Assembly: GCA_017512495.1 (NCBI GenBank)
Contig: JAFWGF010000049.1
Span: 71,267 to 130,359, forward strand
From: Bacilli bacterium
GTDB taxonomy: Bacteria; Bacillota_I; Bacilli_A; RF39; UBA660
Direction: 5' to 3'
DNA length: 59,093 nucleotides
Every line of letters starts with the position of its first letter. Position 1 is the stretch's first letter. The notes beneath the pieces were generated by a model. That model was given only the letters and a program-made list of their open reading frames with translations, did no database searches and was not told where the DNA came from. Shown here one piece after another: positions 8,845 to 28,445 of this stretch. The translations under genes were made by a program, and so were the position numbers.

Positions 8845-9771
8845 ATGAAAGTTATTTTTATGGGAACACCAGATTTTGCTGTTCCAGTACTTGAAGGTTT
8901 AATTGAAAATTATGAAGTTATTTTAGTCGTTAGTCAACCAGATAAAAGAGTAGGAAGAAAACAAGAATTAAAAAATACTCCAATTAAGGAAGTAGCTCTT
9001 AAACATAATATTCCTGTATTTCAACCAGTTAAAATAAGAGAAGATTATCAAGAAATAATAGATTTAAATCCAGATATAATAGTGACTTGTGCTTATGGAC
9101 AAATTATTCCTAAAGCTATTTTGGATTGTCCTAAATTGGGCTGTATTAATGTACATGCCTCTCTTTTACCTAAATTAAGAGGAGGAGCTCCTATCCATAA
9201 AGCTATTATTGATGGTTATAAAACTACAGGTATTACTATTATGTATATGGATGTTAAGATGGATGATGGGGATATAATTAGTCAAAAAGAAATAGAAATT
9301 ACCGATGATGATAATCTAGAATCTCTTCATGATAAATTAAGTGTTTTAGGTAAAGAAGTATTACTTGAAACTTTACCTAGTATTATAGATGGTACTAATG
9401 AAAGAATTAAACAAAATGAAGATGAAGTTACTTTTGCTTATAATATCAAAAGAGAAGAAGAACATATTGATTTTAATAAGAACAGTAGAGAAGTATTTAA
9501 TCTAATTAGAGGTTTATCTCCAGTACCTTCTGCAAATGCAATTTTATTTGATGAGGAAATGAAAATATATGAGTCTATTATTAGTGATAAGGGATACAAA
9601 GGTACTTGTGGTGAAATAGTTGATATTAATAAACAAGGTATTGTGGTTAAGACTAATGATGGAGCAATTATTATTACTAAAGTAAAACCATTTGGTAAAA
9701 AGTTAATGGATGCTACTAGTTATGTTAATGGTGTAGGAAAGGATAAATTATTAGGTAAGGTGTTTAATTAA
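8845..9771 (+). CDS. fmt: Methionyl-tRNA formyltransferase
   Basis: MKVIFMGTPDFAV N-terminus; INVHASLLPKLRGGAPI motif. Confidence 0.97.
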   Translation: MKVIFMGTPDFAVPVLEGLIENYEVILVVSQPDKRVGRKQELKNTPIKEVALKHNIPVFQPVKIREDYQEIIDLNPDIIVTCAYGQIIPKAILDCPKLGCINVHASLLPKLRGGAPIHKAIIDGYKTTGITIMYMDVKMDDGDIISQKEIEITDDDNLESLHDKLSVLGKEVLLETLPSIIDGTNERIKQNEDEVTFAYNIKREEEHIDFNKNSREVFNLIRGLSPVPSANAILFDEEMKIYESIISDKGYKGTCGEIVDINKQGIVVKTNDGAIIITKVKPFGKKLMDATSYVNGVGKDKLLGKVFN

Positions 9772-10454
9772 TGAAACAGTTTATTGAATTTATTAAAGAA
9801 GTAAGAAAAACTCCTCGAGGAAAAGCAATTCTTTTCTTTGCTTTTTATTTTATAGTTTTTCTTGTGATAATTATGATCATAAGATTTAATGATAATACTA
9901 GTTATGAAAAAGATTATGAACCAGGAAAGGCTTATTCTTTTGATACTAGTTTACTATCAAAAAATAATTATCACTTTGAATATATAATCACTAAAGATAA
10001 TATTAAATACCAATATATAGGTGATAGAAATGGTAATAAGGAAACATTTACTTTTAATGATAAAAAATATTATTATGACGGAAATAAATACTATTTAGAA
10101 AATAATGAAATAGATAATCCATATTTATATAGTGAATTCATTAATTTGAATAATATTTTATTATTAATAGATAATGCTACTTATGATTCTAAAACTGATT
10201 ATCAAAGTGGTACTACTAAATATAATTTCTTAATATCTAGTAATACTATTAATAGCCTAATTAATAATAAAGAGACAGATATTGATGATTTACCTAATAG
10301 TTTAACTATAAGTAGTGATGAAGATAATAAAGTAGATAGTATTATTTATCATTTAGATAGTTATTGTAAGAGCAATAAAGAATGTGATGATAATTTAGAG
10401 ATAGATTTATCATATGAACAATTTGGAGAAATAAAAGAGATAGTTAATAATTAA
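9771..10454 (+). CDS. Hypothetical protein with N-terminal membrane anchor
   Basis: Overlaps the fmt stop; TM helix at aa ~20-38; Asn/Asp/Tyr-rich extracellular domain. Confidence 0.75.
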   Translation: MKQFIEFIKEVRKTPRGKAILFFAFYFIVFLVIIMIIRFNDNTSYEKDYEPGKAYSFDTSLLSKNNYHFEYIITKDNIKYQYIGDRNGNKETFTFNDKKYYYDGNKYYLENNEIDNPYLYSEFINLNNILLLIDNATYDSKTDYQSGTTKYNFLISSNTINSLINNKETDIDDLPNSLTISSDEDNKVDSIIYHLDSYCKSNKECDDNLEIDLSYEQFGEIKEIVNN

Positions 10455-10504
10455 CTATCTTTTTATTTATTATGATATAATAAAATTACTATGGGTGTGA
10501 TAAT

Positions 10505-11527
10505 ATGACTAGTATTTATAATTTAACTAGAGAAGATTTAGAAAATTATTTTTTAAGTATTAATTCTAAGAAATTTCATGCTGATCAGTTATTTGATTGG
10601 CTGTATGTTAAAAGAATTAAAAGTTTTTCTGAAGTTACTAACATCAAAAGAGATGTTTTAGAAGATATTATGAATAATTATACTTTGAGTGATATAACAA
10701 TAGTTAAAGTAGAAAAAGATGAGGATGTTCATAAGTATCTGTTTGAACTTAGTGATGGAGAACATATTGAAGCAGTATTAATGTTTCATGATTATGGTAA
10801 TAGTGTTTGTATCTCTTCTCAAGTTGGTTGTAATATGGGATGTAAGTTTTGTGAATCTGGTCGCAGAAAAAAAGTACGTAACTTAGAAGTATCAGAGATG
10901 GTCTTGCAAATACTTTTAATTGAAGAAGAATTAGGAAAGAGAATTAGTCATGTTGTAGTTATGGGTATTGGAGAACCATTTGATAATTACGATAATTTAA
11001 TAAAATTCTTTAGAATAATAAATGACCCTAAAGGTATAAGCATAGGAGCTCGCCATATTACTGTTAGTACTTGTGGTATAGTCCCTAAGATATTAGAATT
11101 TAGTGATTTAGATATGCAAGTTAATTTAGCCATTAGTCTTCATGCACCTAATGATGAACTTAGAAATAAGATTATGCCTATTAATAAAGCTTATCCTTTA
11201 AAAGAATTAATGGATTCTTTAAAAGTATATTTGAAAAAAACTAATAGAAGACTTACTTTTGAATATATTTTATTGAAAGATGTTAATGATAGTGAAGAAA
11301 ATGCCTTAGAATTAGCTAAATTAGTTAAAGGTTTAAACTGTTATATAAACCTAATTCCTTATAATGAAACAAATAATATTGATTTTAAGCGAACAAATAC
11401 TATTCAAATTATGAGATTTTATGATATACTTAAAAAGAATAATATTGGTGTAACAATAAGAAGAGAATTTGGTGGCAATATAAGCGCAGCTTGTGGACAA
11501 CTTAGAAGTAAGAAGGAGGAACTATGA
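10505..11527 (+). CDS. rlmN: Dual-specificity 23S rRNA/tRNA m2A methyltransferase (radical SAM)
   Basis: SSQVGCNMGCKFC cluster motif, MGIGEP, ISAACGQL C-terminus. Confidence 0.97.
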   Translation: MTSIYNLTREDLENYFLSINSKKFHADQLFDWLYVKRIKSFSEVTNIKRDVLEDIMNNYTLSDITIVKVEKDEDVHKYLFELSDGEHIEAVLMFHDYGNSVCISSQVGCNMGCKFCESGRRKKVRNLEVSEMVLQILLIEEELGKRISHVVVMGIGEPFDNYDNLIKFFRIINDPKGISIGARHITVSTCGIVPKILEFSDLDMQVNLAISLHAPNDELRNKIMPINKAYPLKELMDSLKVYLKKTNRRLTFEYILLKDVNDSEENALELAKLVKGLNCYINLIPYNETNNIDFKRTNTIQIMRFYDILKKNNIGVTIRREFGGNISAACGQLRSKKEEL

Positions 11528-12270
11528 GATCATTTTATTTAACTGATCCGGGTATGGTTAGAGACCATAACGAAGATAGTGTAATTATAGTTAAGAATGA
11601 TGAGGGTAGTATATTAATGGCAATTGCCGATGGAATGGGTGGTCATTCTGCAGGAGAAGTTGCTTCATCTATAGCCATTAATTATTTAGGAAAACATTTT
11701 AAAGAGTCATTTCGTAATATGACAAAGGTTGATACTGTTAACTGGATTCGTGATTCTGTTGATGAGATTAATACTTTAATATTTCAATATGAGAAGAGTC
11801 ATCCTGAAAGTAAAGGGATGGGTACTACTTTAGTTTCTGCAATATTAACTAAAGATTTTTTGCTGTTTGGTAATGTAGGAGATTCAAGTGGTTTTGTAAT
11901 GAAAGATAATAATCTTCATAAGGTTACATATGATCATACATTAGTTAATTTATTAGTTAGTGCTGGAGAATTAACTAAGGAAGAAGCTAGTGTTCATCCG
12001 AAAAAGAATGTTTTAATGAAAGCTTTAGGTACTTCATCAGAAGTTGATATTGATATATTTGATTGTGACATAGAAGTTACAGAAATACTATTAGCTAGTG
12101 ATGGACTTACTGGGATGTTAGATAGAGAACACATTGAAAAAGTTCTTTTAGGAGAAGGAACTGTTGAAGAGAAAGTTAATAGATTAATTAGTAAAGCAAA
12201 TAATAGGGGTGGAACAGATAATATTTCGGTTGCTTACTTAGTTCGTACAGAAGAAGGTGAAGACAAGTGA
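11524..12270 (+). CDS. stp1: PP2C-family Ser/Thr phosphatase (Stp1/PrpC)
   Basis: RDHNEDS, IADGMGGH, GMGTT, ASDGL, GGTDNIS motifs; directly upstream of the kinase. Confidence 0.95.
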   Translation: MRSFYLTDPGMVRDHNEDSVIIVKNDEGSILMAIADGMGGHSAGEVASSIAINYLGKHFKESFRNMTKVDTVNWIRDSVDEINTLIFQYEKSHPESKGMGTTLVSAILTKDFLLFGNVGDSSGFVMKDNNLHKVTYDHTLVNLLVSAGELTKEEASVHPKKNVLMKALGTSSEVDIDIFDCDIEVTEILLASDGLTGMLDREHIEKVLLGEGTVEEKVNRLISKANNRGGTDNISVAYLVRTEEGEDK

Positions 12271-17215: not shown

Positions 17216-17294
17216 GATTTTTTAAGCATATGCAATTGTAATGAAATACTTTCCGTGATATAATAATTGTTATAATAGGATGTATGGTGATAAT

Positions 17295-20200
17295 ATGAAG
17301 AATAAAAGAAAAGGAAATAAAGGTTTTACATTAATTGAGCTTTTAGCATCAATAGTATTACTAGGAATATTATTTGTTTTTGCCATTCCAACAATAGTTG
17401 GTGTAGTAGAAAGGAATAGAGATAAGATTTATGTAAGTGATGTTAGAAAATTAATGTCACAGGCAGAACATAAGTTGAAGGCATCTAGTACTATTATGGA
17501 AAAACCAGAACCGGGAGATTGTATTGTCATCAGTTTAGTTTATTTGGATAGTGAAGACTTTGACCAAGCTCCAAATGATGGAGAATACATTAAAGAAGCT
17601 TCATTTGTTGTTGTAAAAAATAATGGGGGAAAATTAGAGTACTCAGGAGCTATTGTAGAAAAAACAAAAGCCGGAGGATATAGAGGTATTGAATTAACAA
17701 AGGAAGATTTACTAAAGCAATCAAATGCTGTTAGATTTGTTAAAAATATTTCAGAAAACAATATAATAAAAGTTAACGATCCGCATGTTATAATGTCAAA
17801 TTATATTAATTCAACATTAAAAGAACAAAATGATGGTGTAGACTATGTTAAAACTGTTAGTAATATTTATAACCAGCCAAGTTTAGAGGACCAATCATCA
17901 TCTGGAGAAACACTTCCTCCAGTTATCACTAAAGCAACCTTAACATCAACTTCTGGTAAAAATTATAACTCACTAGATGCTACACTTAACTTAACTGTTA
18001 CTGATAGAGATAATCCAACAAATCAACTTTTAGTAGGTCTTTCAACATCTAGTTATACTGATGCATTGAATGGTGAAAAACTACCATATGGTGAAGAAAA
18101 CACTTTTACTAAAACTTATGAGTTCGATAAAATGGGTTATGGCTATTTAGGTAATAATCAAGTTAATTTATATATTGTAGTAATTGATCCTGAAAAAAAT
18201 AGAGTTCAAACAAACATTAGTTATAAATTGCATAAAAATGAACCTCCTGTAATTGGAGAAGGATCTAAATTAGTAAGAAGAGCAGAAGATCCAGTAAATA
18301 AAGGGACAGCTATACTAAAATTGGATTTATCAGATGATATTGATTCAACTAATGCTTTAAAAGTATGCTATACAGCAAATACTAATGCAAATAGTTGTAA
18401 TAATTATGTATCTTACAGAGACATGGTGCGTGATGATGTTTATATCGAATTTGATACAGCACAATGTAATTTAACCGGTCAAGAATATAAATTGAAAGTC
18501 TTTGTAGCAGATAGTAGTAATGAGATAAGTTCAAAGGTATTAACATATAAAGTTCATAATGATGGTAATCCTTCTTTTGATCCAAATAAAAAACAAGTTG
18601 ATGTTGTTACTGCAGAAACTGGATATAACAGTTTAAATGTTAAAGTGTTTGTAAATGGATCTGATGATGTTACTCCTAATTCTAATTTAAGAGTTAGAAT
18701 AGTTGAAGGTAATACTGATCAAATATATCGATATGATGCAAATGGAATACCGTTTAGATTAAGTGGTCATTATGATGGTCAAAAGAGAACATTAAAAGTT
18801 ACTTTAATTGATGAATGTAATCATTATTCAAATACTGTAACTTATTCAGACTATACTGTTTATAAAAATATTCCACCACAAATAGACAGTATATCTATTA
18901 TGAGTAATGGATATGCTTGTAATAATAGTGATGAATGTCCTATCGTAAATAATAATGGAACTGTTACAAGTGGTGGAAATGCTAAAGCAAGTGTTTATAT
19001 TAATATTTTAGACGATTTAGATAGTGATGATTTATATAATAATATAAAAGTTTGTATTTCAGAAAATAGAGCAAACTGTAATAATGAAGCTAATTTCAAG
19101 CCTTATTCGGAATATGCTACAGGTACTATCTTTACTTTTGATGCGGGCAATGCTACTCCATATAATGGTAGTACTAAAACACTCTATGTTGTTTCAAAGG
19201 ACTCTGAAGGTGCCATTAGCGAAAGTTCAAAAAGATATACACTCTATAAGAATAAAGCTCCAGAAATTACTGGATTTGATGTTCACTCTGAAGATAGGCC
19301 ATTTGTTAGTACCGATAATAATAGTTTGAATCTTACTTTCTTCCTTCAAGCAGATGATGACATTTTAGATTTAAATGATTTACAATATACAATCCAAACT
19401 CAAGGAAGTAGCGAAGTAGTAGAAAAGAAAAGTCTTGCTGAATATGATGAAACTAAAGGATTAAAATATCATGTAGCAGGTACATATGATGGTGGAGAAA
19501 GAACTATTGTCTTAAAAGTTTATGATAATTATTCAGCAGGTTCTGAGCCATCTACTCAAAAATACAAAGTTTATAAAAATAAACCACCAGAGATTTCTTT
19601 GTTAAAGACAGAAATAGATGAACAAACTGGTGAAGAAGTTCAAGTAAGTGTTGAAAATGAAATAGATATAGTCCAAAGTTCTGAATGTTTATCAAGTTAT
19701 AAGTGTCCTTATTTAGCTGAAGATGCTAATGGTAAAGGACAAAAAGTCAGTGTAATATTTGAAGCTACTGATGACATTGATGGAGTAGCAGGTATAGAAG
19801 AAGATGATGGATTAGAACAAGGAGAAATGACAGTATGTGTATCTGAAACTGAAGCAGATTGTACTGCTGCAAATTCTACACATTATGTGCCTTATAAACA
19901 ATTTGTTGAAGAAGAAAGAGAATATATATTTAATAAAGGTATGACTAATCCATATAAGTCTCAATATAAAAATAAAACATTATATGTTTATTTAAGAGAT
20001 TCAGGAGGTTTAACTACACATGTTAGTAAACCATATACGCTATATACAGCAAGTGCTCCTAAATTCATAGATGAGGAAGTTGACGCAGTAACTCAGCACG
20101 TAACAAAATATCCAAATATTACTCCAGTTGGAATAGACCAAGTAGATGAGTCTTCGGGAATTGTTGTTAATGGTAGAACTGCATTATACAATATGCTAGT

Positions 20201-21476
20201 TGTAGATGATTTTGAAGATTCTATAAATTTAGAAACTAGTATTTGTTATAAAAAAGTCGATAGTGAAGATGAATGTAGTTGGAGTGCGTATAAACCATAT
20301 GAAGATACTGTTGAAATAAATTTTGATGATACCAACAGTTACAACGGTGAAGAATATGAAATATATGCTAGGGTTAGAAATTCTTTAGGCATAGTTGCTA
20401 CAACATCTACACCATTGAAATATAAGGTTTATAAAGATGACAAACCAAGAATCTTATCTATAGCAGCCAGTTATGAAAATGCAACTCATGTAGATACAGA
20501 TCCACCAGCTTCTAATAATGGATCTTTATTGGGATCATGGGAAACATATAATAGTGATACCATGTTTAGAATTAGTATTATAGCTGAAGACTTCTTTGAT
20601 TCATATAAGGTATGTGTTAGTAAAGATCCTAACGGAGCAGATTGTACAGATGATAAATATCTAGGAAAACAGGATGGAACTCTTTATAGTGGAACAGATG
20701 TTGATTCAATACTATTCTATTATAATGAACCAGATGGACTAAAGTCTCATACCGATGCAGAGATAGGTTTTGAGGTACTAGTAGATGATTATTATTTATT
20801 TGTAAAAGATTCTCATGGTAATGTTGCAAAATCTAGTGCTTTTTATGCTTCAGAATTCAATGAGTGTGATGAAAAAAGGCCAAAACCTTCAGTAACAACA
20901 TATGAGCATTCAAGTGGTTCAACAATTAGTACAGCAGCTTGTCGTGGACAATGCTACTATTCAGAAACTGCAACAGATACTAGTGAATGTAAAATGCCTG
21001 GTGAATCAACTCCAGAAGGTGAAGAAGAAAAAGAAGAATGTGATTTATCAGAATTTATTGAAAAAACATCAGAAATAGTAGGAAACTATAAAAAGAAACT
21101 TACATATAATGATAGTTTTACCAATGCAGTGTGTACTCCTCCAACAGAAGAAGATTATACAGCAAATTGTTCATTTAAACAGTGTTTTTATAATAAGAGT
21201 ACTCAACCATATAATGTTAAAGCCATTGGTTTAAGGAAAAAAACATTCCCTAGAGGTGCTTCTGAAATGGTTAACGTTATAGTAAGCGGAGAAACTATAT
21301 CAATAAATAGTTATGAATACTATACTGTTTATACAGTTACTTATGATGGTGTCTCTGAATCAGTAGATTTACATCCAACACCTGAATATGTTTTCCCAGA
21401 AGAATATAATTTAAATCCAGATAAATACAAATATAAATCAAGTGATGATGTTCCATACATCAGAGTAATGGATTAA
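17295..21476 (+). CDS. Giant type IV prepilin-like protein (1393 aa) with about 8 Ig/cadherin-like repeats and Cys-rich C-terminus
   Basis: Likely start ATG 17295; class III signal KG|FTLIE with hydrophobic helix; recurring Y[KT][LV][YH]KNxxP linkers and DDxD motifs. Confidence 0.8.
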   Translation: MKNKRKGNKGFTLIELLASIVLLGILFVFAIPTIVGVVERNRDKIYVSDVRKLMSQAEHKLKASSTIMEKPEPGDCIVISLVYLDSEDFDQAPNDGEYIKEASFVVVKNNGGKLEYSGAIVEKTKAGGYRGIELTKEDLLKQSNAVRFVKNISENNIIKVNDPHVIMSNYINSTLKEQNDGVDYVKTVSNIYNQPSLEDQSSSGETLPPVITKATLTSTSGKNYNSLDATLNLTVTDRDNPTNQLLVGLSTSSYTDALNGEKLPYGEENTFTKTYEFDKMGYGYLGNNQVNLYIVVIDPEKNRVQTNISYKLHKNEPPVIGEGSKLVRRAEDPVNKGTAILKLDLSDDIDSTNALKVCYTANTNANSCNNYVSYRDMVRDDVYIEFDTAQCNLTGQEYKLKVFVADSSNEISSKVLTYKVHNDGNPSFDPNKKQVDVVTAETGYNSLNVKVFVNGSDDVTPNSNLRVRIVEGNTDQIYRYDANGIPFRLSGHYDGQKRTLKVTLIDECNHYSNTVTYSDYTVYKNIPPQIDSISIMSNGYACNNSDECPIVNNNGTVTSGGNAKASVYINILDDLDSDDLYNNIKVCISENRANCNNEANFKPYSEYATGTIFTFDAGNATPYNGSTKTLYVVSKDSEGAISESSKRYTLYKNKAPEITGFDVHSEDRPFVSTDNNSLNLTFFLQADDDILDLNDLQYTIQTQGSSEVVEKKSLAEYDETKGLKYHVAGTYDGGERTIVLKVYDNYSAGSEPSTQKYKVYKNKPPEISLLKTEIDEQTGEEVQVSVENEIDIVQSSECLSSYKCPYLAEDANGKGQKVSVIFEATDDIDGVAGIEEDDGLEQGEMTVCVSETEADCTAANSTHYVPYKQFVEEEREYIFNKGMTNPYKSQYKNKTLYVYLRDSGGLTTHVSKPYTLYTASAPKFIDEEVDAVTQHVTKYPNITPVGIDQVDESSGIVVNGRTALYNMLVVDDFEDSINLETSICYKKVDSEDECSWSAYKPYEDTVEINFDDTNSYNGEEYEIYARVRNSLGIVATTSTPLKYKVYKDDKPRILSIAASYENATHVDTDPPASNNGSLLGSWETYNSDTMFRISIIAEDFFDSYKVCVSKDPNGADCTDDKYLGKQDGTLYSGTDVDSILFYYNEPDGLKSHTDAEIGFEVLVDDYYLFVKDSHGNVAKSSAFYASEFNECDEKRPKPSVTTYEHSSGSTISTAACRGQCYYSETATDTSECKMPGESTPEGEEEKEECDLSEFIEKTSEIVGNYKKKLTYNDSFTNAVCTPPTEEDYTANCSFKQCFYNKSTQPYNVKAIGLRKKTFPRGASEMVNVIVSGETISINSYEYYTVYTVTYDGVSESVDLHPTPEYVFPEEYNLNPDKYKYKSSDDVPYIRVMD

Positions 21477-21489
21477 AGTTGGTGAGATA

Positions 21490-21984
21490 ATGAAAAAGAA
21501 GATTTTAGATTTTATAAAGAAAAATATTAAATTAATAATAATTGCTTTAATATTTATTTTGGGTATTGTGATAATAGTATCTGTTATAAGTATTAAATCT
21601 GATAAAGAAAAAGGATATAAGGAAGAAAATAAATATAGAATATCAGATGAGGTTGTAGAAGTTCCCGGAACTAAAATAATAACAAGCGATAGAATAAAAG
21701 AAAGACATTGCTTAAATGATATATGTGTTACTAATATGACTTTTTATACATATGGAAAAGATGGAAGAATCGAATGCACAGTTAAGAACGAAAGTGAAGA
21801 AGAAAAAAGTGGTTATATAAAGATAAAAGTTAACGGAATTAGTTTAATAGCTAATTATGATAATTTAGCTCCGGGAAAGGAATCTAAAACAGTTGCTAGA
21901 TACACAGGTGTGGAATTTACTGATATCGAAGACTACACTTTAGAAGAATTAACAAAAAAAGAAAAGAAAAACATTAGAGGATAG
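21490..21984 (+). CDS. Membrane-anchored small beta-sandwich-like protein in the pilin operon
   Basis: N-terminal TM helix; C-terminal domain CLNDIC...IEC; lies between giant pilins 1 and 2. Confidence 0.7.
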   Translation: MKKKILDFIKKNIKLIIIALIFILGIVIIVSVISIKSDKEKGYKEENKYRISDEVVEVPGTKIITSDRIKERHCLNDICVTNMTFYTYGKDGRIECTVKNESEEEKSGYIKIKVNGISLIANYDNLAPGKESKTVARYTGVEFTDIEDYTLEELTKKEKKNIRG

Positions 21985-21994
21985 GAGGTAAAGT

Positions 21995-24900
21995 ATGAAT
22001 AAAAAAGGATTCACAATGGTAGAACTTCTAGGAGCTATAGTAATATTAGGAATATTAAGTGTAATAGCAATCACAGGAGTAAGTAATTTAATACAAAAGT
22101 CAAAAGATACAGATGAAGAACAATATGAGAAGACATTAAAACAAGCAGCGCAAAGTTATATGCAGTCAAATAGAAATAAATTACCAAAAGCAATAGGAGA
22201 AAAAAGAAAGGTAACCGCAGCTGAATTAAAGGGAAATAATTACCTAAAAGAGGGAGATAAAGGCTGTGTAGAAATATATAAAAAAGATAAGAATAAATAT
22301 GTATATACAGTAAATATGGAATGTGAAGAAACTCATATTCAAGAAATATGTGAAAATTCAGGATTAGTCTTAGAGAAATTCTACTTTACAGATCATACAT
22401 TAAGTGAATTAGAAAGAGTAGATTTAGATAACTTAGAAGAAGCAAGGATGGTTATCTACTTTAAAGGTGGAACAAAAGCCGGAGAAGAATTAGCAATAGA
22501 AAGTTATTCATATTCAATATCAGTACAGACAAAGAATGATCCAAACTTACATGAAGTATATAATTCAGGATCATTAAATGGAAATGGAAATAAAGAGATA
22601 AAAATCATAAAACAAATAAGTGAATATGTACATTTATCAGGAGCAACAAATGTAGTAGTAACACTAAAAGCAAAGAATACAGAAGGATGTTCATTAAAAG
22701 AAAGTAGATCAACCAGTTATGAAGATGATGTCAAACCAATATGTACATTTATAAAAAATCAAGCAACATCAGGAAATGATTGGATAAATAAAAAAGATGG
22801 AGGAGCAACAAGAACAATAACAGCAACATGTGATGATGGATTAGGAAGTGGATGCGTAAGTCAAAATGTTTCAAGGACATGGGAAAATGATTATCAACAT
22901 GATGCAGAGTGGGCATATATTCAAGTAAAAGATAATGCAGGAAATACAAATATAGATGATGAATTTATAAAGGCAAGCCCAACAATATGTGACAAACCAA
23001 TCCAAGCAGATAATACATGTCGAGTAAGAGTAAATGTAGATAAGACACTACCAACAATAAAGGTAGTAGGAGCATATGAGAGAGCAGATGGAGCAACTGC
23101 AGCAATAAAGCAAAATGCTCCAAATATATTAAATATTAATGGATCAGGAACAATAACAATAGATAATAACAGTAATGGTGGGCAAGGAACAGGAAGCATA
23201 GCAGTAGGACAATATAAGAATTTAATAAATGACTGGATGAACTTAGTAAATTATCCATATGGAATAGCATATCAAGTAGAGATATCAGATACATTACATT
23301 TAGCAGGGTGGTCATGGAAGACAAATCAAGCAGGATTAGGACATAGAGATTCAGGATATGGAACATTAGGAAATAATGAAAGTCCAAATGGAGGAAGCTT
23401 TGCTGATCTAACAGACAATGATTGTGGAAAAAGAGATGTAGCAACAATAGTAATAGGATTCCAAAAAGAAGGAAAGAGAAAAGGAGAGTTAAAGGTATGG
23501 GATAAAGCAAACAATATAACTACCTTAACAATCTATGCAAACTTAGATAGAACTCCACCAGAAAAGCCAACAGTAACATACAAAAAGGCAAAATCAAATG
23601 CAAAATATACAGCGGGAACTGCAGTAACAAATTGGTCAACAGAATTAATAAATTCATATGTTACAGCAAAAGTAGAACCAGATATATCAGGATGGGATAG
23701 ATTCGAATATTGGTATAGAAAGCAAAATGCAGTAAATAATACCGAAGCAACAACAGCAGGAAGTTTAGCAGCAGCAATAACAGGCCAAACAAAAATGAAT
23801 AATTATCCAGATAAAATAGAAAATTTAGCTGGATATCAAATAAAAGATGAAGGAAGACACTTGTTCAAATATAATAGTTGTGATAGAGCAAGTAACTGTT
23901 CTGATTATAGTAATGAAGATACAATAAAGATAGATACAAAACCACCTGCATGTAGTAACCAAATCAGTTATCCTCACGGAAAACCAACAGATTATGGATG
24001 GTTAGGAAGACATTATGTTGCGAATGCTACGTACTATACAGAAACTAACGAAGCAAGAGGACAATATAAAGGTCACTATGTAGAAGCTGAGAATAATAGA
24101 GAAACGGCAATAGTAAAACAAGTTTGTACAGAAAATGGAACATATGGAAGTCAGTGTGATCCGGAATCAATATCTCAATTTGAATATAAGGTTCCAATTA
24201 ATACTACGGCAGCAGGAGCAGAAGGAGACGGAAAAGGAGGAACAATAAAAGATAAAGCAGGAAATGAAACAGCGTGTACACCAGATCAAACTGTAAAAAT
24301 AGACTATGCCCTTCCAAAGTGTATTGTAGAAAATGAAGCAGAATATAAAAATGACAAATGGAATTGGGCAAGAAGTAGGACAATTTATCGTAAATGTAAT
24401 GACGTTAAAAGAGATGATCATCCAAACGATACAATAAGCGGATGTCTGCCAGATCTTACTAAGGAGAGAAGTTTTGGTGGAAAAAAATCTGATGTAAACT
24501 TAAATGATAAATTAATGACAACATATACATATCAATCAGGTTATAAAATAACAGATAAAGCAGGAAACAAAAGATTCTGTTTTCCACCAACTGTAAAAGT
24601 ATATGTAGATAGAAGTGCACCAAATTGTAGTTATGACAAATCACATACATATACTACATCAGGAGTAACTATAAAATATTCATGCAATGATAAATATGGA
24701 AGTACAGCTGGTGTAGGAGTTAATACATGCCCAGGTGGAAGAGACCACACAGTAACAGAAAAGAAGAAAACTCAGACACCAAGTATGGATGATAAACTAG
24801 AAAATGATGCGACATGTACTGTTCCAGTACATAGTCAAAAACAATATAAGAAGAAAACATGTAATCAATATAAGAAATGTAAAAATTCTGCTTGTGGAAC

Positions 24901-25192
24901 AACAACAATATATGCATGTGTATGTAAAGGAACTGGTTGTGGTATGTGCCCTAGTGGTTATACTCATTATTCAAGTGTACCTTCTGGATGTGGAACATAT
25001 GGTTGGAGTGGTGGTATGAGTGGAACTAATGCTCATGCTCACAAAGCATGCTCTATTACTAATAGTTGTAGAACAGCAGCTTGTGGTTGTAATAGTTGGA
25101 GTGGATACTCTGGATGGTCAACAGGTAACCATTGTCCAGGATATAGTAATTCAAACTCTTGTAAACAGAAGAGTAGAACAGTTTATTACTAG
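21995..25192 (+). CDS. Giant type IV prepilin-like adhesin A (1065 aa)
   Basis: KKG|FTMVE class III signal; Ig-like repeats with DKAGN/VD-x-T-x-P motifs; 14 Cys in the last ~110 aa. Confidence 0.8.
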   Translation: MNKKGFTMVELLGAIVILGILSVIAITGVSNLIQKSKDTDEEQYEKTLKQAAQSYMQSNRNKLPKAIGEKRKVTAAELKGNNYLKEGDKGCVEIYKKDKNKYVYTVNMECEETHIQEICENSGLVLEKFYFTDHTLSELERVDLDNLEEARMVIYFKGGTKAGEELAIESYSYSISVQTKNDPNLHEVYNSGSLNGNGNKEIKIIKQISEYVHLSGATNVVVTLKAKNTEGCSLKESRSTSYEDDVKPICTFIKNQATSGNDWINKKDGGATRTITATCDDGLGSGCVSQNVSRTWENDYQHDAEWAYIQVKDNAGNTNIDDEFIKASPTICDKPIQADNTCRVRVNVDKTLPTIKVVGAYERADGATAAIKQNAPNILNINGSGTITIDNNSNGGQGTGSIAVGQYKNLINDWMNLVNYPYGIAYQVEISDTLHLAGWSWKTNQAGLGHRDSGYGTLGNNESPNGGSFADLTDNDCGKRDVATIVIGFQKEGKRKGELKVWDKANNITTLTIYANLDRTPPEKPTVTYKKAKSNAKYTAGTAVTNWSTELINSYVTAKVEPDISGWDRFEYWYRKQNAVNNTEATTAGSLAAAITGQTKMNNYPDKIENLAGYQIKDEGRHLFKYNSCDRASNCSDYSNEDTIKIDTKPPACSNQISYPHGKPTDYGWLGRHYVANATYYTETNEARGQYKGHYVEAENNRETAIVKQVCTENGTYGSQCDPESISQFEYKVPINTTAAGAEGDGKGGTIKDKAGNETACTPDQTVKIDYALPKCIVENEAEYKNDKWNWARSRTIYRKCNDVKRDDHPNDTISGCLPDLTKERSFGGKKSDVNLNDKLMTTYTYQSGYKITDKAGNKRFCFPPTVKVYVDRSAPNCSYDKSHTYTTSGVTIKYSCNDKYGSTAGVGVNTCPGGRDHTVTEKKKTQTPSMDDKLENDATCTVPVHSQKQYKKKTCNQYKKCKNSACGTTTIYACVCKGTGCGMCPSGYTHYSSVPSGCGTYGWSGGMSGTNAHAHKACSITNSCRTAACGCNSWSGYSGWSTGNHCPGYSNSNSCKQKSRTVYY

Positions 25193-25225: not shown

Positions 25226-25258
25226 AAAAAAACTTAGTTGTTTTAACTAAGTTTTTTT
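25226..25258 (+). terminator. Intrinsic terminator between adhesins A and B
   Basis: AAAAAAACTTAGTT-GTTTT-AACTAAGTTTTTTT, a perfect 14-bp stem. Confidence 0.85.
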
Positions 25259-25328
25259 ATTGTTAAAGAAGTAAAATAATGATATAATCAGTCTATAATA
25301 GGTATAGTGTCTTATACGGAGGTAAAGT

Positions 25329-28300
25329 ATGAATAAAAAAGGATTTACAATATTAGAACTTCTAGGAGCTATAGTAATATTAGGCATATTAAGTGTAATG
25401 GCAATTGTAGGAGTAAGTAATTTAATACAAAAGTCAAAAATGACAGATGAAGAACAATACGAAAAGACATTAAAACAAGCAGCGCAAAGTTATATGCAGT
25501 CAAATAAAAATAGATTACCAAAAGCCATAGGGGAACAAAGAATGGTAACCGCAACTGAACTGAAAGAAAATAATTATCTAAAAGAAGGAGATAAGGGTTG
25601 TGTAGAAGTATATAAAAAAGATAAGAATAAATATGTATATACAGTAAATATGGAGTGTCAAGAAAAATATATTGAAGAAATATGTAAAAATGTAGGTCCA
25701 AAGATAGAAAAAATGTACTTTACAGATCATACATTAAGTGAATTAGAAACAGTAGATTTAGATAACTTAGAAGAAGCAAGAATGTATATTTACTTTAAAG
25801 GTGGAACAAAAGCCGGAAAAGAATTAGGAATAGAAAGTTACTCATATTCAATATCAGTACAGACAAAGAATGATCCAAACTTACATGAAGTATATAATTC
25901 AGGATCATTAAATGGAAATGGAAATAAAGAGATAAAAATCATAAGAAAGATAAGTGAATATGTACATTTATCAGGGGCAACAAATGTAGTAGTAACACTA
26001 AAAGTCAAGAATACAGAAGGATGTCCATTAAAAAAGAGTATATCAACAAAATATGAAGATGATGTCAAACCAATATGTACATTTATAAAAAATCAAGCAA
26101 CATCAGGAAATGATTGGATAAATAAAAAAGACGGAGGAGCAACAAGAACAATAACAGCGACATGTGATGATGGATTAGGAAGTGGATGTGTAAGTCCAAC
26201 GTTCTCAAGGACATGGGAAAATGATTATCAACATGATGCAGAATGGGCATATATTCAAGTAAAAGATAATGCTGGAAATACAAATATAGATGATGAATTT
26301 ATAAAAGCAACACCAACACTATGTGGTAATTCAGCTCAAGTAGATAATTCATGTCGAGTAAGAGTAAATGTAGATAAGACATTACCGACAATAAAGGTAG
26401 TAGGAGCATATGAGAGAGCAAATGGAATAACAGCAACAATCAAGAAAGGTGCTCCAAATATATTAAATATAAATGGATCAGGAACAATAACAATAGATAA
26501 TAATAGTAATGGTGGACACGGAACTGGAAGCATAGCAGTAGGACAATATAAAAACCTAATAAATGACTGGATGAACTTAAAGAACTATGAATATGGAGTA
26601 GCGTATCAAGTAGAGATATCAGATACATTACATTTAGCAGGATGGTCATGGAAGACAAATCCTGGAGGAGTAAGTCATAGAGATACAGAATATGGAACAT
26701 TAGGAAATAATGAAAGTCCAAGCGGTAAAAATTATGAAGACATCCAAAATAATGATTGTGGAAAATTAAATGACACGATAATAATAGGTTTTAGTCAAGA
26801 AGGAAGAAGAAAAGGAGAGTTAAAGGTTTGGGACAAAGCAAACAATGTAACAACTTTAACAATCTATGCAAACTTAGATAGAACAGCACCAGAAAAACCG
26901 ACAGTAACATATAAAAAGGCAAAATCAAATGCTAATTATACGGCTGGTACTGCAAGAGCAAATTGGTCAACAGAGTTAATAAATTCATATGTTACAGCAA
27001 AAGTAGAACCAGATATATCAGGATGGGATAGATTCGAATATTGGTATAGAAAGCAAAATGCAGTAAATAATACTGAAGCAACAACAGCAGGAAGTTTAGC
27101 AGCAGCAATAACAGGTCAAACGAAAATGAATAATTATCCAGATAAAATAGAAAATTTAGCTGGATATCAAATAAAAGATCAAGGAAGACACTTGTTCAAA
27201 TATAATAGTTGTGATAGAGCAAGTAACTGTTCTGATTATAGTAATGAAGACACAATAAAGATAGATACAAAGCCACCAATTTGTAGTAACGAAATCAGTT
27301 ATCCAAATGGAAATCCAACAAGCTATGGATGGTTAGGAAAGCATTATGCGAACAGTACGACATATACTTCAAGTGGAAAAAATACAGCAATAGTAAAGCA
27401 AGTTTGTACAGAGGATGGAACATATGGAAGTCAATGTGATTTAGACACAATATCCCAATTTGAATATAACGTACCAATTAATACTACAGCAGCAGGAGCA
27501 GAAGGAGATGGAAAGGGAGGAACAATAGCAGACAAAGCAGGAAACGTAAAAAGTTGTACTCCTGACCAAACAGTAAGAATAGATTATCAAGAGCCAAAAT
27601 GTGTAGAAACTAATCAAGCGGAACAAAAAAGTAATGGTGACTGGATTTGGACTCGAAGTAGAACAATTTATCGAAAATGTGAAGATTATAAAGAAAAAAC
27701 TACAGACATGATAAGTGGCTGTGTACCAAAAACGGAATCTATATCTTTCGGTGGAAAAAACGCAGATGTTAATTTAAATGATAAGTTAAAAACTAATCAT
27801 ACTTTCCCAGGATTTGGAATTCAAGATAAAGCCGGAAATAGAAAACTATGTGGTGACAAGGTAGTACATGTTTATGTAGACAGAAGTGCACCAAATTGTG
27901 ATTATAAAAAGACTAATAAATATTCAAAAGAGGGAGTAACAATAGAGTATACATGTGATGATTTATATAAAGGTACTGAAGGTACAGGAGTTAAAACGTG
28001 TCCAGGAGGAAGTGACCATATTGTTACAAAAAGAACTACAACTCAGACACCAAGTATGGATGATAAACTAGAAAATGATGCAACATGTACTGTTCCAGTA
28101 TATAGTCAAAAACAATATAAGAAAAAGACAAGAACATGGAATAGCTGCAAGTATAAAAAAACAGAGTACTATGATTGTATATGGAGAGGTGGAAATAATC
28201 CATCTAATGCTACAGTTTCTACTTGTGTAGGACATGGTTCTTGTACATCAAGTAAAAGAGGAACAGTTTGTGGATCACCAAATGCTACATATGGTTGGAC

Positions 28301-28445
28301 CTGCGTATGTAGTTCTAGAAAAGTGTGTGTAGGTGATTGGAATGATTGGAGTGGCTGGTCATCAAGCTGGTCAACAGATAATCACTGTCCAAACTATAAG
28401 GATTCAAATTCTTGTGATCAAAAGAGTAGAATAGTTTATTATTAG
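25329..28445 (+). CDS. Giant type IV prepilin-like adhesin B (1038 aa), paralog of A
   Basis: KKG|FTILE class III signal; near-identical to A over ~650 aa; different 10-Cys tip; own extended -10 (TGATATAAT, ~25280). Confidence 0.8.
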   Translation: MNKKGFTILELLGAIVILGILSVMAIVGVSNLIQKSKMTDEEQYEKTLKQAAQSYMQSNKNRLPKAIGEQRMVTATELKENNYLKEGDKGCVEVYKKDKNKYVYTVNMECQEKYIEEICKNVGPKIEKMYFTDHTLSELETVDLDNLEEARMYIYFKGGTKAGKELGIESYSYSISVQTKNDPNLHEVYNSGSLNGNGNKEIKIIRKISEYVHLSGATNVVVTLKVKNTEGCPLKKSISTKYEDDVKPICTFIKNQATSGNDWINKKDGGATRTITATCDDGLGSGCVSPTFSRTWENDYQHDAEWAYIQVKDNAGNTNIDDEFIKATPTLCGNSAQVDNSCRVRVNVDKTLPTIKVVGAYERANGITATIKKGAPNILNINGSGTITIDNNSNGGHGTGSIAVGQYKNLINDWMNLKNYEYGVAYQVEISDTLHLAGWSWKTNPGGVSHRDTEYGTLGNNESPSGKNYEDIQNNDCGKLNDTIIIGFSQEGRRKGELKVWDKANNVTTLTIYANLDRTAPEKPTVTYKKAKSNANYTAGTARANWSTELINSYVTAKVEPDISGWDRFEYWYRKQNAVNNTEATTAGSLAAAITGQTKMNNYPDKIENLAGYQIKDQGRHLFKYNSCDRASNCSDYSNEDTIKIDTKPPICSNEISYPNGNPTSYGWLGKHYANSTTYTSSGKNTAIVKQVCTEDGTYGSQCDLDTISQFEYNVPINTTAAGAEGDGKGGTIADKAGNVKSCTPDQTVRIDYQEPKCVETNQAEQKSNGDWIWTRSRTIYRKCEDYKEKTTDMISGCVPKTESISFGGKNADVNLNDKLKTNHTFPGFGIQDKAGNRKLCGDKVVHVYVDRSAPNCDYKKTNKYSKEGVTIEYTCDDLYKGTEGTGVKTCPGGSDHIVTKRTTTQTPSMDDKLENDATCTVPVYSQKQYKKKTRTWNSCKYKKTEYYDCIWRGGNNPSNATVSTCVGHGSCTSSKRGTVCGSPNATYGWTCVCSSRKVCVGDWNDWSGWSSSWSTDNHCPNYKDSNSCDQKSRIVYY

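Follow-up and report, generated by a model that had tools for sequence, protein, structure and literature searches.

Modular type IV pilins that act as tip adhesins are an established concept (PMC8179133, Raynaud et al. 2021). Examples include the Streptococcus sanguinis proteins PilB and PilC, which carry a vWA and a lectin module, respectively, and CofB of enterotoxigenic Escherichia coli (PMC8179133). Here we describe two neighbouring genes, A and B, of a Bacilli bacterium (assembly GCA_017512495.1, contig JAFWGF010000049.1, positions 71,267 to 130,359 of the forward strand); this stretch of 59,093 nt is referred to as the window, and coordinates without a contig name are positions in it. 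Known here from sequence, A and B follow the plan of modular type IV pilins, in which a class III signal peptide and a pilin module are followed by grafted modules that are thought to sit at the filament tip and to mediate adhesion. Both proteins end in a Cys/Trp-rich tip (the last ~113 codons of open reading frame (ORF) A and the matching end of ORF B), where a conserved frame encloses an exchangeable insert. On balance, we think it probable that A and B are giant modular type IV pilins with a fixed frame and recombination-exchanged distal heads, acting as adhesins. The two genes are as follows.

21995-25192, plus strand: gene A, a 1065-aa modular type IV pilin with a prepilin N-terminus, an immunoglobulin (Ig)-like stalk and a Cys/Trp-rich tip, assigned from its translation, PF07963/TIGR02532 and recurring V/I-D-x3-P-x-C boundaries
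25329-28445, plus strand: gene B, a paralogous modular type IV pilin of 1038 aa

Like S. sanguinis, the organism is monoderm and encodes a minimal set of type IV pilus genes. A, B and the other giant pilin of their cluster are, however, far larger (1038-1398 aa) than the largest multi-domain example surveyed, which has 860 aa (PMC8179133). Unlike known modular pilins, A and B have a long Ig-like stalk, a terminal module without a match in Pfam, NCBIfam, PDB or Foldseek, and a tip that is built as frame plus cassette and exchanged by recombination. A second system for comparison is pilE/pilS of Neisseria, where pilin antigenic variation arises by gene conversion. In both cases, homologous recombination at conserved flanks can replace the part of a type IV pilin that is variable and exposed at the surface. 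The present locus differs from pilE/pilS in that a silent cassette archive is absent and only two full-length expressed-type genes occur; exchange appears to proceed by unequal crossover and patchy conversion between strains, not by programmed high-frequency switching; and what varies is an entire terminal domain, carried by a minor-type modular pilin, rather than a loop in the major pilin. We considered an archive of silent cassettes and discarded the idea, given that just two frame-bearing genes are found in the assembly (86% complete) and one copy in related species.

The N-termini of A and B read MNKKGFT(M/I)(V/L)ELLGAIVILGILS, with the prepilin N-terminal methylation motif at residues 2-26 (PF07963 N_methyl, TIGR02532). 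C-terminal to the pilin module lie ~900 aa of Ig-like domains and the tip. The Ig-like assignment is based on weak Big_3_2 matches in A and B, weak HYR matches in relatives, and the domain boundaries (VDxxxPxC) that repeat along A. The assembly, which comprises 1.37 Mb in 51 contigs with 27% GC, encodes a T2SSE-type ATPase (contig C47), a Peptidase_A24 prepilin peptidase adjoining a T2SSF platform protein (contig C12), and eight prepilin-like proteins. Because ATPase, prepilin peptidase, platform and prepilin genes are all present, a type IV filament able to carry A and B is plausible. Among the other large prepilins are a 720-aa protein on contig C26 (4934-7096, minus strand), which has 15 Cys in its last ~115 aa and another ending (...CPDCIWW), and a 722-aa protein on C12, whose N-terminus is as in A and whose end is Cys-poor; the genome therefore encodes several large pilins with different tips. 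Homologues, all from metagenome-assembled genomes (MAGs) of uncultured 'Bacilli bacterium', are annotated merely as prepilin-type or type II secretion proteins.

The anatomy of the tips is listed below, together with features of AlphaFold2 (AF2) models and their predicted local distance difference test scores (pLDDT). The models cover residues 871-1065 of A, that is, the last Ig domain and the tip (mean pLDDT 77.7), and the B tip alone (71.5).

24833-24859, plus strand: N-side frame of A, SQKQYKKKT, first strand of the tip (AF2 strand E77-89, block-mean pLDDT ~89-98)
24860-25096, plus strand: insert of A (class A), 79 aa with 12 Cys and two C-x4-C-G hairpin turns at 24878-24898 and 25067-25087 (central pLDDT 42-58)
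25097-25189, plus strand: C-side frame of A, WSGYSGWSTGNHCPGYSNSNSCKQKSRTVYY, followed directly by the stop codon (pLDDT 82-98, final strand E186-194)
28104-28130, plus strand: N-side frame of B, SQKQYKKKT (AF2 strand E12-20)
28131-28346, plus strand: insert of B (class B), 72 aa with 8 Cys
28347-28442, plus strand: C-side frame of B, WSGWSSSWSTDNHCPNYKDSNSCDQKSRIVYY, followed directly by the stop codon (pLDDT 82-94)

The shared ending is thus SQKQYKKKT-[insert]-WSG(Y/W)S..WST.NHCP.Y..SNSC.QKSR.VYY. The C-side frame (C-frame) carries two Cys, and the tips total 14 Cys in A and 10 in B. An initial annotation of this DNA had reported a conserved frame around a variable insert and the same two Cys counts, and translation confirmed both; it had placed the module starts at 24853 and 28124, which fall within the N-side frames, whose exact starts are 24833 and 28104. 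Cys makes up 9-12% of the tips, against a proteome mean of 1.0% (0.6% for Trp). A search of the 80 C-terminal residues of all ORFs in the assembly with the W-strand motif pattern matched A and B only.

At the protein level, A and B are 82% identical in their bodies and 74% in their C-frames. DNA identity runs at 90-99% for the first 2 kb and at 57-76% for the distal stalk; it is 82-87% in the N-side frame, 40-48% in the insert and 74% in the C-frame. The two inserts align with a local score of 43, against 37.2 +/- 6.8 for shuffled sequences (z=0.8; 112 of 500 shuffles scored as well), a contrast to body and frame that chance would not produce. The earlier statement that the inserts differ entirely therefore stands in the statistical sense, but both contain TYGW and their composition is similar. 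The sole large indel outside the tip is a 17-aa stalk insertion in A relative to B (23975-24065).

The frame is common to more than 30 relatives and consists of three elements, namely an N-side strand, C-(T/K)-V-x-V-x-S-x-x-Q-(Y/S)-(K/R)-x-(K/R)-(T/S); a C-x4-C-G element, which is often present; and a C-terminal motif, C-G-x-x-x-W-(S/G)-x-(W/Y)-(S/G)-x-W-(S/G)...C...C..(S)R.(L/V)Y(Y/K). W171, C186 and Y194 (model numbering) are invariant, and R191 is nearly so. The initial annotation had suggested collecting insert diversity with a profile of the frame; in six-frame searches, the C-frame profile was found in 9 of the 47 species genomes searched within the same genus, each with a different insert, and was absent from all 34 genomes searched in other genera of the class. 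Among 1.84 billion representative proteins it gave 11 matches, mostly at the extreme C-terminus, a low number because a profile of 40 positions has little power. A word-based search of 5.8 billion proteins with the A tip returned only its own 90% cluster, and the search for related loci, which used the whole protein, gave mostly N-terminal pilin matches. Pfam and NCBIfam scans yielded no match for either tip, the sole hit in the proteins being the N-terminal pilin motif. The tip domain matches no described family in Pfam, NCBIfam, PDB or Foldseek.

Comparison of related organisms indicates that inserts move independently of the bodies that carry them. The rpe ... tex locus with a single ~1000-aa pilin was found on four related metagenome contigs; among these organisms, Tex is 91-97% identical and the pilins just ~50-79%. 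At least four insert classes occur within the one frame, and class is incongruent with body similarity, as the following pairs illustrate.

B and P0010 (from a related species): body 53%, insert 58%, insert z=28.6
P0009 and P0012: body 49%, insert 54%, insert z=16.1
P0011 and P0012: body 79%, insert 30%, insert z=-0.3

Inserts of class B and of class C were each seen in more than one species. Four gut metagenomes, bovine and sheep samples among them, also contain contigs with both tips, and metatranscriptome contigs cover both tips at low depth. Across the four metagenomes, the A tip differs at 0-9 positions per ~570-855 nt (~98.4-100% identical). Since the A tip is nearly invariant and the inserts of B and P0010 are conserved within their class, the description of the insert as hypervariable had to be given up, and the tips are better described as discrete conserved cassettes. 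That the tips are interchangeable, as had been proposed, is well supported, both by the incongruence of class and body and by a natural chimera.

In this chimera (P0110), one of several recombinant forms among the 90%-cluster members from the window's own species, the A body is identical through residue 945 and is joined to the complete B tip. P0110 is encoded on an 84.9-kb contig from another sample (L045, named k141), where one hybrid gene (9001-12180) stands in place of the A+B tandem, directly upstream of tex. At informative sites, the hybrid gene matches A at 468 of 468 positions up to 24768 and B at 229 of 229 positions from 24811, which places the crossover in the interval between them.

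24769-24810, plus strand: 42-nt stretch identical in A and B that holds the chimera crossover, delimited by informative-site matches of the L045 gene

The chimera is consistent with an unequal crossover that deleted ~3.3 kb, comprising the A tip, the intergenic terminator and promoter, and the B body. Exchange is not limited to the tips. In some copies of A from other strains, residues 8-241 or 206-241 are replaced by B sequence, and reciprocal copies of B exist too (P0007, P0108, P0114, P0116). The blocks exchanged in either direction correspond to 22016-22717 and 22610-22717 in A and to their counterparts in B, so that the pilin module and the first stalk domain show patchy gene conversion. 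Separately, Logan contigs from three runs (X10, X13, X16) join B-like sequence up to 27544 to A sequence from 24300, with 35 other letters between them, which points to strains in which gene A is B-like over a segment upstream of 24300. The 1398-aa pilin of the cluster is only 48-55% identical to its orthologues in three related loci (L039, L041, L042) despite the 91-97% identity of Tex, so the whole cluster is fast-evolving and not the tips alone.

Both AF2 models predict the frame strands with confidence (82-98) but the middle of the insert poorly (42-58). The A model contains two hairpins, with the turns K-C-K-N-S-A-C-G and S-C-R-T-A-A-C-G, and then the final strand CKQKSRTVY; the W segment is confident in both models yet not regular beta. 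Foldseek found no significant match in PDB for either model or in BFVD for the B model, and the best non-significant matches of the B tip were long beta-hairpin stems. Four relatives (P0044, P0047, P0040, P0118) carry at their C-termini arrays of a 13-aa repeat, C-x4-C-G-V-x2-Y-x2, that are symmetric around a central variable segment, with at least ~11-12 units per side in P0118; the repeat matches no Pfam or NCBIfam family. The mirrored arrays (as in P0044 and P0118) and the weak Foldseek matches to hairpin stems are the reason for reading the tip as hairpin-like, and the models suggest a long beta-hairpin finger.

A working model for the whole protein can be outlined as follows. The N-terminal pilin module would insert into a type IV filament, and a stalk of about eight Ig-like domains would carry the tip at the distal end. 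The finger, probably stapled by disulfides, would have as its base the SQKQYKKKT strand, the C-terminal W-strand and the KSRxVYY strand, and as its rungs the C-x4-C-G turns. The insert would form the apex furthest from the cell and would be the putative ligand-binding head of the adhesin. As the frame is conserved in DNA too, homologous recombination within it could move whole heads between genes and strains, and the outcome would be discrete, interchangeable specificity or antigenic cassettes. The proposal of the initial annotation, a conserved scaffold at the distal end of a pilin that displays an exchangeable, disulfide-rich insert, is thus upheld by the prepilin N-termini, the peptidase, ATPase and platform genes, the incongruence of class and body, and the chimera. 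Of this picture, the sequences directly show the pilin signal, the genes for assembly, the division into frame and insert, the cassette classes and the recombination, whereas entry into a filament, disulfide bonds, adhesion and the kind of ligand are inferred.

Several points weigh against the model of exchangeable adhesin heads. The chimera rests on one short-read metagenome contig; the apex has a pLDDT of 42-58, so that the term 'binding head' is based on position and variability alone; the tips used for the Cys parity count given below are related and not independent; and disulfide formation in an anaerobe is unexplained, because no DsbA, DsbB or VKOR was found. A more radical objection is that the swapping of tips arose only during metagenome assembly, through false joins at paralogous repeats, and that A and B are old paralogs diverging at their ends. 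It is true that every sequence derives from a MAG or a metagenome contig, that long stretches of A and B are nearly identical, and that Logan contigs built at k=31 break at the 42-nt island and are unable to span the crossover. However, the exact repeat is just 42 nt long and should not cause a false join at k=141, so 141-mers spanning A- and B-specific sites can be presumed, and the chimera is probably real; the presumption is drawn from the contig name and not from reads. Class and body are also incongruent between orthologous loci from four independent samples, where paralog collapse is impossible because the loci are single-copy, and the recurrence of class B and class C inserts in different species also speaks against misassembly. 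We therefore rejected assembly artefact as the sole source of the mosaicism, on the grounds of the single-copy orthologous loci and the 42-nt crossover, and regard the explanation as a whole as highly improbable. The cysteines raise a different question, namely whether they bind metal (Zn or Fe-S-like clusters) in a knuckle domain stabilised by metal, as would suit an anoxic gut. In favour of metal are the frequent CxxC and C-x4-C spacings, the five His of the A tip, the anaerobic ribonucleotide reductase encoded within the window, and the lack of DsbA, DsbB, VKOR, DsbD and Thioredoxin_4 in the 86%-complete assembly. Yet 26 of the 28 delimited tips have an even number of Cys (range 10-28), which favours disulfides, even-count bias being an indicator of disulfide pairing (PMC2823432), and the counts are mostly not multiples of four (10, 14, 22, 26). 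P0009 has Tyr in place of two Ig-domain Cys (alignment C42 and C71), as if a bonded pair had been lost. The remark that many disulfides in an anaerobe imply a dedicated oxidative route was apt in view of the missing Dsb-type proteins. Three small thioredoxin ORFs (95-105 aa) are presumably cytoplasmic. One membrane-anchored thioredoxin-like protein with a CKYC motif, encoded at C20:7991-8545 (Pfam TraF, 26.8 bits; cut-off 23), weakly resembles TrbB of F-pilin assembly and the PedC/BrcD disulfide isomerases, and is the sole candidate extracytoplasmic thiol oxidase found in the genome. This protein also speaks against metal, and we consider metal binding decidedly unlikely.

The remaining alternative concerns the nature of the frame, which the initial annotation had likened to a thrombospondin type-1 repeat (TSR; PF00090, as in thrombospondin-1, TRAP and properdin). 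In its fullest form, it holds that the frame is a true divergent, circularly permuted TSR, or a TSR-like scaffold with a Trp/Arg-Lys ladder, where the WxxWxxW strand and the K-x-K-x-R strand would correspond to TSR strands A and B, and the upstream QYKKKT would be the third strand. The likeness is real at the level of motif. A WxxWxxW-type strand is present (W-S-G-Y-S-G-W in A, W-N-D-W-S-G-W-S-S-S-W in B), and the order W-S-G-(Y/W)-S-..-W-S, then C, then K-Q-K-S-R, in which the Trp, Cys and Tyr named above are invariant and the Arg nearly so, follows the TSR succession of Trp strand, Cys and alternating-basic strand. Strand A of a TSR is irregular rather than regular beta, as is the confidently modelled W segment, and both domains are small, Cys-rich and extracellular. 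The 11 matches of the C-frame profile include a 19-repeat protein that is Pfam-confirmed as TSP_1 (E=2.7e-38) and a protein with WTEWS-type repeats and a weak, sub-threshold TSP1_2 match; hhalign against these TSR repeats gave P=1.9e-4. Genuine TSP1 repeats also stand directly after the last Ig-like domain, the position of the tip, in two distant relatives, P0066 (~486-538) and P0042 (~631-677). At the level of family and fold, however, the likeness fails. Neither tip matches a Pfam TSP family at E<=10 (as positive controls for TSP_1, P0122 scored 130 bits, and P0066 with 19.8 bits and P0042 with 18.6 bits fell slightly short of the cut-off of 21.6). With the C-frame profile, no chain was retrieved from the PDB at E<=10, although the PDB holds many TSRs, and Foldseek returned no TSR among 34 (A) and 8 (B) PDB matches at E<=10, the domain being small, its apex of low confidence and the method weak on irregular strands. 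The hhalign alignment spans only 15 columns (WSxWSxWS..C) at 47% probability and stops short of the Arg strand, and the match to the multi-repeat protein is the sum of 19 weak matches to a low-complexity motif. The C-frame lacks CSxxCG and, with its two Cys, the six-Cys disulfide pattern; unlike in a TSR, the third strand would have to come from 70-80 residues upstream, across a large insert, and the protein ends directly after the basic strand. In P0066, moreover, the TSR is not flanked by this frame. A TSR origin of the frame, or a TSR-like ladder within it, is thus unlikely in our view.

As to the two relatives themselves, the P0066 fragment matches thrombospondin-1 with E=9.5e-7 and 26 further PDB chains, nearly all of them TSR-containing, and P0042 has two tandem TSP1 repeats. 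Judged from these sequences, TSRs are one type of tip module in the wider family, and the TSR of P0066 is a separate module distinct from the present frame. The literature searched appears to contain no report of TSP1 domains on bacterial pilins. A speculative extension would unite several of these threads: the frame as a bacterial, circularly permuted TSR-like Trp/Arg-ladder scaffold, derived from or converged on the animal TSR, that serves as a recombination-ready chassis for unrelated disulfide-rich heads on a type IV pilus and is folded oxidatively by the TrbB/PedC-like membrane thioredoxin in a Dsb-less anaerobe. We rate this combination as improbable and prefer the narrower reading of giant modular pilins with exchangeable heads.

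The pilin cluster is inserted between the housekeeping genes rpe and tex, in the order 288-aa membrane protein, 213-aa protein, 1398-aa prepilin, 164-aa protein with a single transmembrane helix, A and B. Its further features are the following.

17280-21476, plus strand: third giant prepilin, 1398 aa, with a C-terminus unlike those of A and B; kept in syntenic loci
21490-21984, plus strand: 164-aa protein with a single N-terminal transmembrane helix; in syntenic loci always between the 1398-aa pilin and gene A
25226-25258, plus strand: AT-rich, terminator-like hairpin of 15 bp with a T run, between A and B (fold -12.8 kcal/mol, z=-4.9)
25260-25288, plus strand: promoter-like site upstream of B, TTGTTA-17-TATAAT with a TG extension (10 of 12 consensus matches; identified by consensus match only)

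The hairpin between A and B was not called by a consensus terminator scan, because its stem contains too few G-C pairs.

Modular pilins are a recently recognised route by which type IV pili gain new binding functions, and this locus would represent an extreme form of it. What is new here is the combination of 1000-aa stalked pilins, a terminal domain of no described family, and a fixed frame with exchangeable heads; natural recombinants in metagenomes indicate that head exchange is happening. The tips also pose a biochemical puzzle, in that domains with 9-12% Cys in even counts are exported by an anaerobic Firmicute without the classical Dsb machinery, and the locus points to genuine TSP1 repeats on bacterial pilins of related lineages. 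For uncultured gut Bacilli with reduced genomes, it may offer a tractable view of how surface specificity diversifies.

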